This document shows, piece after piece, positions 12,395 to 21,243 of a DNA stretch of 64,000 nucleotides. The notes below the pieces were generated by a model. That model did no database searches and was not told the origin of the DNA. It saw only the letters and a program-made list of their open reading frames with translations. The stretch comes from a virus: positions 1 through 64,000 of the IMG/VR virus record IMGVR_UViG_3300008120_000016; one strand, 5' to 3'. Numbering within the stretch: the stretch's first letter is position 1; each line of letters opens with the position of its first letter. The translations under genes were made by a program, and so were the position numbers.

Positions 12395-12492
12395 CTTATA
12401 AATATTTTTAACAACATTTTTTATTTATCCCCACCTTGTTAATATACCCTCCCCCCTTATTTCTTTTGTGATAGAGGATGTGAATACTTTCC

Positions 12493-12555
12493 TAGCCAGA
12501 AGCCCCCGGCTGGCTCACAGCTTGGGGGTACCCCCTCAAAGCTGAGGAGGAAAGC
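12493..12555. repeat. GC-rich inverted-repeat cluster incl. perfect palindrome GGGGGTACCCCC (12524-12535)
   Basis: AGCCAG/CTGGCT stem, 12-bp palindrome and CCTCA/TGAGG stem in the intergenic divergence point. Confidence 0.7.
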
Positions 12556-12679
12556 TGAAAACATGGAAAAAAAATCAAACCACAATCCTAGGAAGAAGAA
12601 CAACACACAGAGACACAGAGACAAAGTTCTTTTCCTTTGTAATCTTGATAACTCTATTCACTAACTAAAATCTATTCAA

Positions 12680-12970
12680 ATGAAAAAGAGTGTACAAATC
12701 TTCATCGGTGGCAGAGAGCTGTCTGTCACTAAACTATTATCAGCGTTATTGTTCATAGCATCCATAATATGGTTTGTTATGGGCATAATACAAATCGAAC
12801 CTCAACAGTTAAAGGGACTATTCTTAATCCTAACAACTGGTACATGGATGACAGCATCTGCTTACATATGGCAGATGGCATACCCTGAACACTACAGAAA
12901 CTACAATTATGCAATACTGATATTTAGTATCACAGTGTTGGCATCAATTGGTTATCAGTGGGCTGTATAA
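12680..12970 (+). CDS. Small multi-pass membrane protein
   Basis: 96 aa with three hydrophobic segments. Confidence 0.65.
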   Translation: MKKSVQIFIGGRELSVTKLLSALLFIASIIWFVMGIIQIEPQQLKGLFLILTTGTWMTASAYIWQMAYPEHYRNYNYAILIFSITVLASIGYQWAV

Positions 12971-12985
12971 CAGCTCAATCTCATT

Positions 12986-13013
12986 AAGCCCTTATTTCCA
13001 TAAGGGCTTTTTT
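12986..13013 (+). terminator. Rho-independent terminator
   Basis: AAGCCCTTAT-TTCC-ATAAGGGCTT followed by a T-tract. Confidence 0.75.
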
Positions 13014-13118
13014 CCTTTATAATATTGGAGAATAGTCACAGGGCTTAACATTTAAACCTGTTATAAATAAGAGCACTATCTCTCCTTATTATATATTCCT
13101 TAACCAAAAAGCAAAAAC

Positions 13119-13292
13119 ATGAAAAAGCTTTTAACACTCATCATTGTAATTGGATTATTTACTAGCTGTACACGCTACACTGTAGACGGTGTCACTAGTG
13201 GAGGTTGCGGAGTTTGGTATGAAAAAAAGTTCAAACCAAACAAAGTACCCAAACAAAGAAACATTCACAACAGAATGCCAGTAATCCATTAA
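13119..13292 (+). CDS. Small putative lipoprotein (57 aa)
   Basis: Hand translation MKKLLTLIIVIGLFTSC...; classic signal II with lipobox. Confidence 0.6.
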   Translation: MKKLLTLIIVIGLFTSCTRYTVDGVTSGGCGVWYEKKFKPNKVPKQRNIHNRMPVIH

Positions 13293-13368
13293 TTCATTTA
13301 AGACCCTTTAATTAGGGTCTTTTCAAATTCCTTTATAAACTCGGTATATATATTCCTTAATCTTAAAA

Positions 13369-13683
13369 ATGTTTAAAATGAAAAAAGAAGGAGCAGTTAT
13401 TTTAATTGCAGCCATTTTAGTAGGCTGCTTAACATTTGCGTTATCAGTTGGATGCAGCAGTAAATCAGGTCAAAGAACTAAAAAGAAGTTCAGAACTATT
13501 GACAACAGCATCAAAATCACATTTGTTGATTCCGTAGACGGTAGACCTACATACTATGTAGAGTTTCCAGACGGAAGAGGGTTGGATCAAATGTATCCAG
13601 AAGAAATCGCCAACAGTCTCAACACCGGTCACTGGAGTTATGATGAGACATTGATTATTGTTGGAGAAGATTCTGCACCTTAA
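13369..13683 (+). CDS. Putative lipoprotein
   Basis: Hydrophobic N-terminus ending LSVGC-SS. Confidence 0.6.
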   Translation: MFKMKKEGAVILIAAILVGCLTFALSVGCSSKSGQRTKKKFRTIDNSIKITFVDSVDGRPTYYVEFPDGRGLDQMYPEEIANSLNTGHWSYDETLIIVGEDSAP

Positions 13684-13729
13684 ACCTTATTAGTTAGGTT
13701 AGGAATGAGTAGGGACTTAACAGTCCCGA

Positions 13730-13774
13730 AAAATATATTCCAATCTCAACTTTCAGTTGAGAACACCTTTATAA
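13730..13774 (+). promoter_or_regulatory. Conserved-flank triloop hairpin element 1 (candidate virion-RNAP promoter)
   Basis: AAAATATATTCCAA-TCTCAACT-TTC-AGTTGAGA-ACACCTTTATAA. Confidence 0.6.
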
Positions 13775-13876
13775 TCTTGATATAATAATTATATAATAGC
13801 AGCATTATATAGTTAAGTGGTTATTTTTTTCCTTTAATAATTCGATAGTTATTTCTTAACCAAAAAATTATTTAAA

Positions 13877-14305
13877 ATGAAAAGCGAAAAACTATTCGGA
13901 TTTAGTTCCATTAGAATTAACGGTCAAGTATGCTTGACCACGAACATCACAATCTCTGCTGCCACAACACTCAACGCAGAAATGCAAGAACTCCGAGATA
14001 TGGGAGTATCTGTATGGCACACACCAAAATTAGTTGGTAGAAAAGGTAAACAGAAAGAAAAACAGTTTATCCAAATCCAACATAACACATTCGATTTTCT
14101 CCAACATTCTGCTGTTAGAACTGCAGTTCAACTATTCCTCGAGAAAGTGTATTTAGAACGCATCAGATGCAAATACTCTAAATATCACAAATCCGAGCAA
14201 ACCAATATTACTCCGCAAGAATACTACGAGTATGAAGGATTAAATTGGGATGAACCAACAGAACAACCGGTTGCAGACTTCAACATTGAAGACATTGATT
14301 TTTAA
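13877..14305 (+). CDS. Hypothetical early protein
   Basis: 142 aa ORF with an acidic tail, own upstream element and terminator. Confidence 0.65.
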   Translation: MKSEKLFGFSSIRINGQVCLTTNITISAATTLNAEMQELRDMGVSVWHTPKLVGRKGKQKEKQFIQIQHNTFDFLQHSAVRTAVQLFLEKVYLERIRCKYSKYHKSEQTNITPQEYYEYEGLNWDEPTEQPVADFNIEDIDF

Positions 14306-14399
14306 GAGTGTTCATAATCACAGCCTTCTATTTCTATAGAGGGCTCTTTTTTTCCTTTATTAAATCGGTACATATTCTTTAACCTTAAATTGATTTGCT

Positions 14400-14612
14400 A
14401 TGATGCACTTCTTATTCTCTACAGAAATCGTTTCTTCATTTGAGAACGATGTTGACATTCACGTCGAATTTAAAGACGTATTGGTAGCTGCTGCTGATTA
14501 TGAAAAAGCAGTAGAAACATTGGAGTACATTTGTAACTACCGAAACGAGTACAAGTATTCTCAATTAGCAACCTACAACTATATTGGTTGTTATGAGAAT
14601 GATGAGTATTAA
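14400..14612 (+). CDS. Hypothetical early protein
   Basis: 70 aa acidic ORF. Confidence 0.55.
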   Translation: MMHFLFSTEIVSSFENDVDIHVEFKDVLVAAADYEKAVETLEYICNYRNEYKYSQLATYNYIGCYENDEY

Positions 14613-14667
14613 CCTCTTTAGGTTAAGAATCCCCGAAGCAGTACAATCTGTTAGGGGATTTTTTTCT

Positions 14668-14706
14668 AAAATATATTCCATTCACCTACGGTGAACACCT
14701 TTATAA
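14668..14706 (+). promoter_or_regulatory. Conserved-flank triloop hairpin element 2
   Basis: AAAATATATTCCAT-TCACC-TAC-GGTGA-ACACCTTTATAA. Confidence 0.6.
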
Positions 14707-14803
14707 TATTGGATAATAATAGTATCGTGTACCGTGTATCGTGGTACATTTTACCTTTTGAAAATAGGTATTTATATTTCTTAATCCATTAAAAAAATAA
14801 CAA

Positions 14804-15322
14804 ATGGAAAATCTGATTAAAAAATCATTAGAATTGGCAGGATTTCAAAACGTCGAAGCTCTTACAAAAGTTGTGTCTTTATCTCCCAATCCAAGGGTAG
14901 CCGCAGAAGTATTGTTAAACTGTCACACACCAATGACACCTGAAAACTTTGGGTTTTATTGGACTCGTAAGTATGACAGTGATAAACAAGTTACAATCAG
15001 TTCTGTAGATGAATTGGCTAATACCGTAACCTATCTCGTGTATACATACGCGACCCAAACGGTTTGGTTTCCAACAGAAGCTGATTATAAAGCCGAAAAC
15101 TTTGTTATTGAAAAACCTGAAAAGAGTTACACTAGTAGGAACATCAGAACAAAGGGCTATAAGTATGAAGAAAACACTGAAAACATTGAGTCATTCCTTG
15201 GAAATCATACCAAATCAGATGCAGGAAAATTCTATAAATGGCTCGAAGAGTCAGAATTGTATGTTAACCCCAAACTGCAAGAGGCTATTGCTGCTGTAGA
15301 TAAGGATCTTATTGACTTCTAA
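14804..15322 (+). CDS. Hypothetical early protein
   Basis: 172 aa ORF. Confidence 0.65.
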   Translation: MENLIKKSLELAGFQNVEALTKVVSLSPNPRVAAEVLLNCHTPMTPENFGFYWTRKYDSDKQVTISSVDELANTVTYLVYTYATQTVWFPTEADYKAENFVIEKPEKSYTSRNIRTKGYKYEENTENIESFLGNHTKSDAGKFYKWLEESELYVNPKLQEAIAAVDKDLIDF

Positions 15323-15372
15323 ATGTTTGTTTTCCTGTTTGTTTGAAGGGCTGCACATTAGTGTAGCTCTTT

Positions 15373-15410
15373 AAAATTATTCCAATCCCCTTCGGGGAAC
15401 ACCTTTATAA
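15373..15410 (+). promoter_or_regulatory. Conserved-flank triloop hairpin element 3
   Basis: AAAATTATTCCAA-TCCCC-TTC-GGGGA-ACACCTTTATAA. Confidence 0.6.
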
Positions 15411-15512
15411 GCTTGGCAGTTTATAGTTTATTGGACATTTTGTAGTTTGTAGTTATTATTTTTCCTTTATTAAATCGTATTTTATTATTCACCCTCTAAA
15501 TCCCCATTCAAA

Positions 15513-16025
15513 ATGGCAACAGAGAAACTTACTATTAGCAGCGTAGACAATTTCCAACAGAGATTTGGTTCAACAGACTACGCAATGTTTAACGCAACTA
15601 CTCCTAATGGAGATAGTATTGTAACGGGTATTTCTTATACCCTATTACAAAGCCGTGGTATTAACACAGACTTGCTTGATTCTTTAGCAGGTTCTCTTAT
15701 CCTTGTAAACGATTCTACGGATATCCGTACAGGAGAGTTTATTGAGGGTAATGAAAGGGTTCGTAAAGTAGCAGAGAAAGAACCCGGAAATTCAGTTCTC
15801 CTTGTTTCAAAGGCTAATGGCTCTATTATTAAATCAGAGCTTTATTCTACTGAAACCAAAGATTTAGCTTCTTCCACACAGGCTAAATTCAAAGTAGAAA
15901 TGGAGAAAGAGAGAGTACTTCAGGCAGCCCGTCGTACTGCAGCAAAGTTTGCTATTAAAGCTGAACCCACAGTTGCAGCTCCTAAAACTGAAGCAGCCCT
16001 TGACACGAACGAAGACCCGTTCTAA
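15513..16025 (+). CDS. Hypothetical protein (possible ssDNA-binding-like)
   Basis: 170 aa; beta-rich core and an acidic C-terminal tip ending DPF, similar to SSB tails (inference). Confidence 0.45.
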   Translation: MATEKLTISSVDNFQQRFGSTDYAMFNATTPNGDSIVTGISYTLLQSRGINTDLLDSLAGSLILVNDSTDIRTGEFIEGNERVRKVAEKEPGNSVLLVSKANGSIIKSELYSTETKDLASSTQAKFKVEMEKERVLQAARRTAAKFAIKAEPTVAAPKTEAALDTNEDPF

Positions 16026-16043
16026 TAAGCCGGTTGAACTATT

Positions 16044-16075
16044 AAGAGAGCCTATCTAACAATAGGCTCTCTTTT
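16044..16075 (+). terminator. Rho-independent terminator
   Basis: AAGAGAGCCTAT/ATAGGCTCTCTT stem followed by Ts. Confidence 0.75.
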
Positions 16076-16165
16076 ATTAGAACGAACAACACACCAACTT
16101 CGTTGACATAGGGACAATGTACGGACAATAAACCGTGTGCTGTGTGTAGTGTATCGTGTGATATA

Positions 16166-16181
16166 TGTTCCACGTGAAACA
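16166..16181. promoter_or_regulatory. parS: parS-like centromere site TGTTCCACGTGAAACA
   Basis: One mismatch from the perfect bacterial parS palindrome TGTTTCACGTGAAACA; intergenic. Confidence 0.7.
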
Positions 16182-16374
16182 TAAAGGAACCAAAACAGAA
16201 CAACGTGTGAAAATTGGATAGGTTGTGGGTTTAGGTTCCTTTTATTTTTGTTTAGTTAAATGGTATAAGTAATTGATTTGTAGTGACGTGTATGAACGAT
16301 AGTCAAGCACACCGTAATATTTCAATACCTTTATATATCAAATTTAACAAACTACAAATCGGATTAAATAGCTA

Positions 16375-16382
16375 TAAATTTG
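16375..16382 (+). promoter_or_regulatory. Bacteroidota -7 box (TAAATTTG) upstream of the large ORF-free structured region
   Basis: TAnnTTTG match; a second, divergent copy lies on the minus strand at 16339-16346. Confidence 0.55.
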
Positions 16383-16388
16383 CCAATC

Positions 16389-17364
16389 TTGCTTCTCTCT
16401 GTTCAGAAGGGTTTAATAGACGTATTAACCGTTGTAAATGACAGATATTCCGGTAAGTTCCCGGACGTAATAGGAAACAGTTGTTCCTATGTAGGCTGAT
16501 ATATCTGAATATATATCCGTTAAGTGATCTGTCCTATGATCTGGTCACCTTTTAAGTAAGGCGGTAGGGTAAACAGTCAAAACACTTAACGATAAGTATA
16601 CAGTTCAAACCTTCAGAGTTGTAAAATACTCACGGTGTATACGATAAGGGACTATGTCCTGAACTAATTGAACCGGCTGCTTATAGTCGTTAGGATAAAG
16701 TGGGTAACCACTATAAAGTGTGCAATGTTTAAACAAGCATTGTATGCACAGGGTTAAACCTGGCCGAGTAAGCATACGAGCAACACATTCAACGGAGATG
16801 TCTCTGAGAATGTACAGTCTTAGCATAGGCTGTTGAGTGAGAAATCACAATAGGAAAACTCGTAGTGATATGTGAAATGATTCCACCAAGAGTCAAATCA
16901 CGTTGATCAGATAGATGTTGCAGGGGTCTGGTAACAGGGTCCTCATCTATCCGTAGACTGGTAATCTACACTGGGATGTCGTGTACGTTTTGCTCAAAAG
17001 GCAGAAAGCACATTCTGACAACACATCCTGGATTATGCTATTGTTTAATTAATAACTAAATTAATTAAAGCAAAAGTTTGTCAGGTGTTTGTGTGAAACC
17101 ATCTTATCTGTATGAAATATGACAGCACAATGAGTACCGCAAGGAAAATTGTGAAATCTAGAGAGTATATCTAAGGAGCTGCAGGGATGTAGCTTGGAAC
17201 TATCCCGTTCACTTGGTAGAAATCAAAGTTTATGTAGCACAAACAAAGATCCTTCTGGAGAGAAGTCAAACACTGATGGTCCCATTTACAGGTTAGTAAT
17301 AACTTGTGTGTGTATGCAATGGTAACGTTGCTAAAATAATGGGAGGAAAGGTCAACACTCAGCC
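16389..17364 (+). ncRNA. Large structured non-coding RNA candidate (GOLLD/ROOL-class?)
   Basis: About 975 nt, GC-enriched, no credible ORF; many stems capped by GNRA-type loops (GTGG-GTAA-CCAC, GTGA-GAAA-TCAC, CTG-GTAA-CAG, CC-GCAA-GG, GTTA-GTAA-TAAC); promoter box at the 5' end; ends CACTCAGCC before a T-run. Confidence 0.7.
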
Positions 17365-17404
17365 TTTTATTTACTTTGTATTTCTAAATCCATAAATATA
17401 TACA

Positions 17405-17725
17405 ATGAAACAATTTTTCAATTTTAAAACGAAAAAAGAAGAAAATCCGTTAGAGAAAATTACAAGGTTTTTTATAAACCCTTATATGCCTCAAAACTAC
17501 AAGCTTCTTAAGCTTAAAGACAAGTATAAAGAAATACTTGCTCATGAAACACAGATAGTTACAGAAGATGGGTATATTCCGTGTGTTTCTTTTCCTATTG
17601 AGTATCTTGTAAATGATACAGCATTTATTGAATGGAGGTCAGATTATCAATTCATCATTAACAGTTCAATCTACTGTAAAATAGTATCAGATGACACTAT
17701 TCGTATTGATACAGTGAAATTCTAA
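17405..17725 (+). CDS. Hypothetical protein
   Basis: 106 aa ORF. Confidence 0.55.
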   Translation: MKQFFNFKTKKEENPLEKITRFFINPYMPQNYKLLKLKDKYKEILAHETQIVTEDGYIPCVSFPIEYLVNDTAFIEWRSDYQFIINSSIYCKIVSDDTIRIDTVKF

Positions 17726-17743
17726 ACCATTAAATAAATAAGT

Positions 17744-17959
17744 ATGAATGCAAGAGAGTTTTTTTTGATGCTTCCTTATAAAATAAAGATCGAAATACTA
17801 AGATCTGCTATAAGAGAAGATTTCCCAGTCTTTATTGGTTTGTCACGTTATGCACTAGAAGCACCTCTCAGTGAGGGTGGTATAGAAACAGAAGTGATCC
17901 AAGCTATTGAAGAAGAGTATAACCTGTACATGGAGGGTGCAAAAATGAGCTCTGAGTAA
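17744..17959 (+). CDS. Hypothetical protein
   Basis: 71 aa ORF. Confidence 0.5.
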   Translation: MNAREFFLMLPYKIKIEILRSAIREDFPVFIGLSRYALEAPLSEGGIETEVIQAIEEEYNLYMEGAKMSSE

Positions 17960-18031
17960 TACCATAATATTATTAAGGTATTACTATAGAGCTCAAATTT
18001 GAGCCCTACTATTTTTTAATCTTTAAATTGT

Positions 18032-18304
18032 TTGCAAATGCAAAACGAATTATTAATTATGCTAGCAACAGCTATGCCAAAAGAGTTATTATTTGAAAAA
18101 ATAGAAGAAGCTATTGCTGAATACAAAGAAGCAAAGCTATTAGGTAAAAATCTTGACGAAGCTGAAAAATCTATTGGGTTTGCTTGTCACCTGATGATTA
18201 TGAACTTAATCACAAAAGGAGAATTATCTGGTTCATTAGATGTGATCAACAAGATAAAAGAGATGAAACAAAGAGATGATTTTTTTAAAATGGATAAAAA
18301 CTGA
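18032..18304 (+). CDS. Hypothetical helical protein
   Basis: 90 aa ORF; true start may be an internal ATG. Confidence 0.55.
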   Translation: MQMQNELLIMLATAMPKELLFEKIEEAIAEYKEAKLLGKNLDEAEKSIGFACHLMIMNLITKGELSGSLDVINKIKEMKQRDDFFKMDKN

Positions 18305-18309
18305 TTATA

Positions 18310-18534
18310 ATGGAAAAATTAATTCGATTTTCAATCTTATCATTAACCTACCTTACATTGTTAATACTATTCTATTGTGCAATTCCTACTGTTAGTTGGA
18401 TTTTTGGGGGAGAATTTCTCTCAGTAGCACAGCACCCTATGCATGTGCTATTTGTAGGTGTGCTTTTAATAGTAATGCTCGGTGTAATATTCTCAGAGTG
18501 TTTTGATTCTAATTTTCGTAGTAAAAAAAGTTAA
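18310..18534 (+). CDS. Small two-TM membrane protein
   Basis: Two hydrophobic segments. Confidence 0.55.
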   Translation: MEKLIRFSILSLTYLTLLILFYCAIPTVSWIFGGEFLSVAQHPMHVLFVGVLLIVMLGVIFSECFDSNFRSKKS

Positions 18535-20687: not shown

Positions 20688-20762
20688 AGTCAAGTAGCTC
20701 AGTTTGGTCAGAGCATCCGTCTGATACGCGGAGGGTCATAGGTTCAAATCCTGTCTTGACTA
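20688..20762 (+). tRNA. tRNA-Ile(GAT)
   Basis: AGTCAAG/CTTGACT acceptor, TCCGT-CTGATAC-GCGGA anticodon arm, GGTTCAAATCC T loop. Confidence 0.93.
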
Positions 20763-20768
20763 CAAACT

Positions 20769-21176
20769 GGGGGTGCCCGGTATTGACAGCAAATGGAAGG
20801 TAAGCACACACGCAGAGGTAAGGGTCTATTCCTCTATAATCAATGATTCAAATTTTAAGCGACAACACAACTGTTGAACTTTCTGACTACACTTTCGAAT
20901 CTCTGCTTGCAGAACTCGAAACTTCTGAGCTTGAATTAGCTTAAGTTAGGCGAGGAGCTATCCTGGGAACAGAAAATAGCACATAGTTTTCCTGATTTTG
21001 TCCTTGTGACATAAAACTTAATAGAAAATCAGGTGGTGGAGCTGTTCTAGCTGGTTTGCTAGTTCCTCATACGGTGCAAAATGTTTGGGATCTTTCCAGC
21101 ATTTAGTACTAAGCGTGTGATACGTTGTGTTTATTGTTTCTTTGTTTGGACAGGGGTTCGACTCCCCTCACCTCCA
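20769..21176 (+). ncRNA. ssrA: tmRNA
   Basis: GGGGGTG/CACCTCC acceptor with G3:U70 and discriminator A; GAC after the D loop; CAGGGGTTCGACTCCCC T arm; internal tag ORF ending TTAGCTTAA. Confidence 0.93.
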
Positions 21177-21243
21177 CTGGTGTTTTCCGTCAAGCTAAGA
21201 ATATCCTGATGTTTCTACATTGGGATTTTTTTAATTTTATATT

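Follow-up and report, generated by a model that had tools for sequence, protein, structure and literature searches.

What is encoded by nearly a thousand nucleotides of viral DNA in which no protein-coding gene can be recognized? The window, that is, the whole 64,000-nucleotide stretch of DNA analysed here, is the beginning of an IMG/VR virus record, which is 124.7 kb long and has a completeness rating of 96%. A first-pass annotation had described positions 16389-17364 as a GC-enriched island without a credible ORF, rich in stems closed by GNRA-type loops, and had proposed that it gives rise either to a long GOLLD-type RNA or to an RNA of a new class. The interval between the stop codon of the ORF at 15513-16025 and the ATG at 17405 (16026-17404) indeed lacks a credible ORF: the longest one in any frame has 73 amino acids and lies on the minus strand (16605-16826), and none of the small ORFs has a Pfam match. 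All of the listed stems and GNRA-type loops are found. By sequence inspection, stems with a GUAA and a GAAA loop are situated at 16700-16711 and 16837-16848, respectively; CC-GCAA-GG lies at 17137-17144 and another of the listed loops at 17294-17300. The further hairpins at 16470-16490 and 16719-16751 were verified as well, and the 3' end motif at 17356-17364 is followed by a T-run. The GC enrichment holds with respect to the downstream DNA (0.37-0.42 versus 0.29-0.33) but is modest, the upstream coding DNA being equally GC-rich.

The region 16388-17365 of the plus strand is predicted to be the gene of a noncoding RNA of about 977 nt that belongs to the GOLLD family, within a divergent branch of crAss-like phages that scores below the Rfam cut-off. 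This assignment, which is based on sequence comparison, is given a probability of roughly 0.85. When 15900-17600 was searched with Rfam models using permissive filters and E values up to 10, the GOLLD model (RF02032) matched 16971-17365 on the plus strand over its full length (model positions 1-416 of 416) with 83.3 bits and an E value of 1.3e-21, in agreement with the GOLLD alternative of the first-pass annotation. A comparison with the Rfam models using Infernal had been suggested there; while GOLLD matches, the ROOL, OLE, group I and group II intron models have no match in 15900-17600 at E values up to 10, and no self-cleaving ribozyme flanking the GOLLD was found in that interval at the same limit. 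The curated gathering cut-off of RF02032 is 150 bits, an annotation threshold rather than a biological criterion; because the score lies below it, routine annotation overlooks this GOLLD. At gathering thresholds, an Rfam scan of the window reports two tRNAs and a tmRNA only, leaving 16388-17365 unmatched. An RF02032 search of the phage's own genome and five relatives also gave no match, although cmscan finds the window copy (E 1e-21); the zeros from that genome search carry no weight, since the known copy was missed. The region was likewise unmatched by blastn against the phage collection and by nhmmer and blastn against 21 related loci.

Upon mapping the Rfam alignment onto the window coordinates, 67 of the 75 retained RF02032 pairs were found to be canonical. 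Base pairing and covariation both show the conserved helices P14-P27 of the 3' domain to be retained. The invariant motifs of GOLLD are all present, namely the core, the A-rich loop, the CGCAAG loop (17138-17143) and the 3' terminus (17357-17365). The terminus fits the model consensus at high posterior probability, bearing out the likeness to the GOLLD 3' end that the first-pass annotation had suggested. The first 580 nt are unmatched by Rfam because the RF02032 model spans the conserved 3' half of GOLLD only. This 5' part (16389-16970) folds at -176 kcal/mol, versus -143 +/- 7 kcal/mol for shuffled sequences; its folding z is -4.5 on the plus strand and -2.9 on the minus strand. The z of -4.5 in the 5' part and the covariance-model match of the 3' part (E 1e-21) indicate that the hairpins exceed what is expected by chance. 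The onset of homology and the last position of the Rfam match define the 5' and 3' edges, respectively; the RNA would accordingly extend over 16388-17365 and, at about 977 nt, lie at the large end of the GOLLD family. The total length implied by the cluster-2 relatives is likewise 950-1000 nt.

The 3' domain can be segmented into the elements of the model, all on the plus strand. Its first hairpin (16971-17031; model positions 1-62), probably P14, has 20 of 22 pairs canonical and an A-rich loop at about 16994-17000 that agrees with the consensus. It is followed by an AU-rich variable linker (17032-17066), which aligns to the unpaired linker of the model and is equivalent to J13/15; ARAGORN finds no tRNA in it. 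The core motif AAAGCAAAAGU (17067-17077) is identical in the Rfam consensus and in 13 of 13 aligned relatives. A long-range helix, formed by 17085-17094 and 17237-17246, encloses three sub-domains (17085-17246); nine of its ten pairs are canonical and all nine modelled pairs covary. Within it, canonical pairing, covariation and alignment define a hairpin with a conserved UGNAAUAUG-type loop (17108-17125) and a hairpin with a GCAA loop at 17139-17142 (17126-17153), probably L20, for which a kissing contact with J13/15 has been published in a solved GOLLD structure. The 3' sub-domain (17264-17343) has 23 of 23 pairs canonical and covaries strongly. It consists of a hairpin at 17264-17274 and a helix (17281-17286 with 17338-17343) around two hairpins, 17287-17308 and 17316-17331, the latter with a GUAA loop. 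The terminal hairpin and the conserved 3' end (17350-17365), identified by model match, pairing and alignment, are followed by a U-rich tract. A possible 5-bp hairpin (CUUCU/AGAAG, 17252-17265) is a competing alternative to the 3-bp hairpin modelled at 17264-17274; a loop-linker pseudoknot (L22 with J17/22) is present at this place in the solved structure.

A covariance model, R1, was built from the window's own 17057-17365 and its verified structure (309 positions, 59 pairs), and other GOLLD loci were gathered with a three-anchor motif pattern. As a single-sequence model, R1 gave 26 full-length matches among the loci from the three-anchor pattern; the full-length matches in motif-fetched loci numbered 26 + 13 + 30, and about 40 other phage GOLLDs were recovered. 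The six best R1 matches were verified by Rfam as GOLLD (85-104 bits), and R1 also recognises canonical GOLLDs that score 254-283 bits with Rfam. The ten Rfam-matched members of the subgroup score 77-118 bits, whereas the canonical prophage GOLLDs of this pool reach 254-283 bits; an eleventh member, L257, was unreported by the Rfam GOLLD search at E values up to 1e-4. A subgroup-specific pattern added 8 viral and 20 metagenomic stretches, with R1 matches in every one searched. Three loci, L024, L139 and L140, were rejected as GOLLDs, being chance matches of early pattern scans.

Among 12 distinct sequences, 91.6% of the paired cells were found to be paired, compared with 31-50% in controls with slid partners, 44 of the 59 pairs differ at both positions, and covariation scores 0.64 versus at most 0.14 in the controls; because the alignment had been fitted to the model, the pair counts are somewhat inflated in favour of the structure, yet the margin is large. 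Similarly low-scoring relatives thus show heavy compensatory change, suggesting that the fold is under purifying selection.

The nearest relatives are sub-threshold GOLLDs of TAG-recoded crAss-like phages (L181, L237 and L239) and of the contigs L248, L236 and L209. They score 72-95 bits with R1 and 77-104 bits with Rfam, and share a diagnostic sequence around L20. The phages carrying the GOLLDs of L181, L237 and L239 are only distantly related to the window phage, their TerL being 28-29% identical.

Upstream of the 3' domain is a structured 5' domain 583 nt long. For two thirds of it (16388-16766), homology to the corresponding domains of related GOLLDs was found. In pairwise alignments identity jumps from background to high exactly at 16388-16389, in agreement with the 5' edge that the first-pass annotation had placed at 16389. 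The 5'-most module, 5'a (16388-16703, plus strand), is matched by a profile of three sequences (L209, L236 and L248) at E 1.9e-21; L248 by itself matches the window from -668 to -345 relative to 17057 at E 6e-13. These three are the only loci with this module among 117 GOLLD loci. The start of the next module, 5'b (16646-16766, plus strand), is common to most subgroup members and is matched by a 15-sequence profile at E 2.6e-10. The remaining hairpin-rich part (16767-16970, plus strand; about 200 nt) is lineage-specific: a profile search found no counterpart in the relatives, which carry about 290 nt in its place. Its predicted hairpins include one with a GAAA loop at 16841-16844 and a long one at 16911-16953. 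RNAalifold run on the four sequences with the 5'-most module yielded 42 pairs, of which 11 show compensatory change, four sequences being too few for statistics. The best compensatory support within the 5' domain is found for the hairpins at 16596-16643 and 16450-16466.

The reach of the Rfam model, 16971-17365 only, and the rarity of the 5'-most module would also fit an arrangement of two RNAs, in which a short GOLLD consisting of the 3' domain alone is preceded by an independent structured RNA or leader at 16388-16970. The 3' domain of another GOLLD can assemble by itself, as a decamer (PMC12990946). However, module and 3' domain are collinear and similarly spaced in all four carriers, the homology continues into the module common to most subgroup members, and neither a terminator nor a promoter was called between the two parts. 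Furthermore, the characterised GOLLDs all have a variable 5' domain of several hundred nucleotides (PMC12286853, PMC12990946). Separate RNAs are therefore considered improbable, and 16388-17365 is treated below as a single GOLLD RNA.

The terminase encoded by the phage matches crAss-like phages only, with 25-27% identity to human-gut 'cr', Bacteroides, Flavobacterium and Cellulophaga phages. Judged by this, the phage is a distant crAss-like one, and its host is probably a member of the Bacteroidota. No GOLLD copy was found in 21 related loci identified via the ParB-like gene. Applied to the records of the relatives, R1 found the window's own copy alone, and when run directly on three complete relatives, 358 kb in all, it found nothing. 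As these three complete relatives lack it, the GOLLD gene is accessory in this lineage. Synteny shows that 12.4-18.5 kb of the window is a hypervariable island; in the relative L003, 2.1 kb of unrelated DNA replaces 4.9 kb of the island sequence. The island (12400-18500) contains small ORFs without family matches, and the genome is about 10 kb bigger than those of its complete relatives. The GOLLD gene has the same orientation as the surrounding small early-type genes. In three complete genomes of about 105 kb that carry a GOLLD, the terminase homologue is 28-29% identical to that of the window phage and contains five to nine in-frame TAG codons (G020:C1:69684-71570, G021:C1:22243-24120 and G022:C1:3572-5458), which implies that TAG is reassigned in the three carriers. 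Among the papers searched, none ties GOLLD to crAss-like phages.

The GOLLD env-38 (RF02032; 833 nt, from a marine metagenome) forms a 14-mer cage with D7 symmetry, as determined by cryo-EM (PDB 9MEE; PMC12286853). The 3' domain of the window copy resembles that of env-38 helix for helix and has the same invariant motifs. Both RNAs are of phage origin and have two domains with an unstructured linker, and in both the P21 region contains two neighbouring hairpins. The 5' domain of the window copy is longer (583 nt versus 420 nt) and aligns only partly even with those of the other subgroup GOLLDs compared. Whereas env-38 lies downstream of a tRNA-Met, the window copy has no neighbouring tRNA. The GOLLD of Streptococcus agalactiae, which is 700 nt long and thus about 280 nt shorter than the window copy, is a 12-mer (PDB 9L0R), and its 3' domain alone is a 10-mer (9LMF; PMC12990946).

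The helix corresponding to the P21 region encloses two adjacent hairpins in all relatives. In the window these are a' (17176-17195, plus strand; 8-bp stem, loop GGGA at 17184-17187), found in the MFE fold, and b' (17197-17210, plus strand; 4-bp stem, loop UAUCCC at 17201-17206), found in the MFE fold and by comparison of the relatives. A hairpin whose stem is of another sequence occupies the position of a' in each of the relatives, and in L177 the stem is preserved via two compensatory changes. The alternative of drawing 17184-17206 as one hairpin, X1, is rejected, since the MFE fold and the compensatory changes in L177 favour two hairpins; the apparent stem of X1 is merely complementarity between the loops of a' and b'. 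From their position and loop type, and not by superposition on a solved structure, a' and b' are taken to correspond to P21a and P21b.

In the solved env-38 cage, L21a and L21b are self-kissing loops that join the half-shells (PMC12286853), and the P21 region varies alongside cage stoichiometry (PMC12990946). Self-complementary loops of the env-38 type are absent from the window copy, where the two loops are instead mutually complementary: UCCC at 17203-17206 can pair with GGGA, giving a mutual run of 4 versus self-runs of 0 and 2. Fifteen sequences have self-complementary loops with a GC core (GGCA, CUGCAA or GUAGCU, with CGCAA), and most subgroup members belong to this class I, unlike the window. 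A Watson-Crick run of 3-4 between a and b, with self-runs of 0-2, is seen in seven sequences (the window and six others) of two letter-types, a number too small for statistics across loop classes. GGGA occurs with UCCA in L177, L248, the L257 group and L238, and UGGUA or UGGGA with ACCAA in L181 and L239; L248, which with L236 and L209 shares the window's 5'-most module, also shares its loop class, class II. In the remaining sequences loop a self-pairs over 2-4 nucleotides and loop b over 2. The GG:CC core of the a:b pairing is invariant, true covariation being confined to the flanking pairs, and class II may represent a single lineage.

Could the window copy be a decaying, non-functional remnant acquired with the accessory island? 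Its score below the cut-off, its absence from complete relatives, its location in a hypervariable region, the 200-nt stretch without a counterpart and the loss of self-complementarity in the kissing loops might all be read in this way. Nevertheless, the model is matched over its full length, with the invariant motifs in place and 67 of the 75 mapped pairs intact, and the compensatory change in comparably low-scoring relatives points to purifying selection on the fold. The re-coding of the loops is coordinated, a and b being still complementary, and recurs in seven sequences, and the folding signal is strong and strand-specific. Decay is thus quite improbable.

GOLLD genes are often located beside or around tRNA genes in phages and prophages, although adjacency is not strictly defining. 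The first-pass annotation had noted that such large RNAs occur in phages, often near tRNAs; the phage origin holds, whereas there is no adjacent tRNA such as most GOLLDs have. The nearest, a tRNA-Ile at 20688, is 3.3 kb from the GOLLD, and none lies in the linker. Immediately after this tRNA-Ile comes a phage tmRNA whose tag has 26 residues (20688-21179 for the two together); the tmRNA is syntenic in relatives without GOLLD (L003:11860-12270 and L005:12018-12414). Hatchet ribozymes above the Rfam cut-off are present at L005:3785-3919 (82 bits), in a close relative of the window phage, and on the minus strand at L248:1904-2084 (62 bits), the latter some 640 nt upstream of the GOLLD closest to the window copy in its 5' domain. 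Upstream of the subgroup GOLLD of L181 is a type III hammerhead match (L181:2074-2132) of 43.4 bits, compared with a cut-off of 48.5; a sub-threshold match to a permuted tmRNA lies at 13034-13294 of the same locus.

The promoter box noted at the 5' edge does exist: the TAAATTTG box, of the form TAnnTTTG, occupies 16375-16382 on the plus strand, 6 nt before the start of the conserved RNA, a position that presumably fits a Bacteroidota -7 element. As a promoter it is a candidate only. The TANNTTTG motif has 90 matches in the window, where about 107 are expected, and no TAnnTTTG box is conserved upstream of L248 and L236; as it is neither enriched nor conserved, the box was dropped as a supported promoter. 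Two further features lie in the 360 nt at 16026-16388, outside the conserved RNA: a hairpin resembling a terminator, at about 16046-16076, and an inverted repeat with arms at 16182-16191 and 16234-16243 and a T-run after it.

No canonical intrinsic terminator was called after 17365, and the ORF at 17405-17725 starts 39 nt later, so that read-through is possible. This proximity is what would be expected if the region were merely a long untranslated leader of that ORF; alternatively, the region might itself code for protein. But the longest ORF, of 73 amino acids and without a Pfam match, is on the opposite strand, relatives of the ORF 17405-17725 do not occur beside other GOLLDs, and conservation tracks RNA pairing rather than codons, which leaves both versions very improbable. 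Neither this ORF nor the one at 15513-16025 has relatives in the viral collection or belongs to a PHROG or Pfam family. The proposal of a new giant-RNA class unrelated to GOLLD, or of a ROOL, OLE or group I/II intron RNA, could draw on the fact that the region is unmatched at the Rfam gathering thresholds, but it is refuted by the full-length GOLLD match (E 1e-21), by the lack of any match to the ROOL, OLE and intron models and by the cross-recognition of canonical GOLLDs by R1, so that the new-class alternative of the first-pass annotation is unsupported.

The RNA is, accordingly, a genuine member of the GOLLD family, a divergent variant and not a new class. ROOL RNA, another Rfam family, which forms an octameric cage, is similar in being a large ornate phage RNA and an RNA-only cage former of similar size class and genomic setting; it is unrelated in sequence and fold.

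Very few natural RNAs are known to build closed cages without protein, GOLLD being among them, and a discrete RNA during lytic growth would be expected of a family member. By analogy with the solved structures, it is rather likely that copies of the window transcript would self-assemble as a closed cage made of RNA only, in which the caps would consist of 5' domains and the rings of 3' domains. How the half-cages would be joined is a more tentative matter. Loop a' (GGGA) might pair with loop b' (UCCC) of a partner chain, this cross-pairing replacing the two self-pairing loops of the env-38 cage; the complementarity of the loops suggests such a joint, at somewhat less than even odds. Dihedral symmetry would in that case oblige a chain to place both of its loops against a single partner rather than against two, so that the seam would differ, perhaps together with the number of subunits. 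In the S. agalactiae GOLLD, P21b is missing and L21 still kisses itself, whereas the window copy has both hairpins, with both loops re-coded. The changes in P21 of S. agalactiae accompany a changed cage stoichiometry, and the re-coding of the loops is read as architectural on these grounds. Alternatively, since GGGA fits the GNRA tetraloop pattern as well, it might bind a receptor rather than kiss another loop, or the a:b pairing could form within one chain. That GGGA/UCCC and the parallel UGGU/ACCA types mark a sub-type of GOLLD in which half-cages are joined by heterotypic kisses is possible, though doubtful.

If heterotypic kissing is true, it would create a seam different from those of the two solved architectures, possibly with another subunit number or with a form that can open or exist as a half-cage. 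The paired re-coding of the loops amounts to a natural experiment in how the cage assembles. crAss-like phages rank among the most abundant phages of the gut and of fresh water. A sizeable branch of GOLLD in the crAss-like phages of Bacteroidota is invisible to standard Rfam annotation. As complete relatives without the gene are available, a comparison of phages with and without it could reveal what the cage is for.
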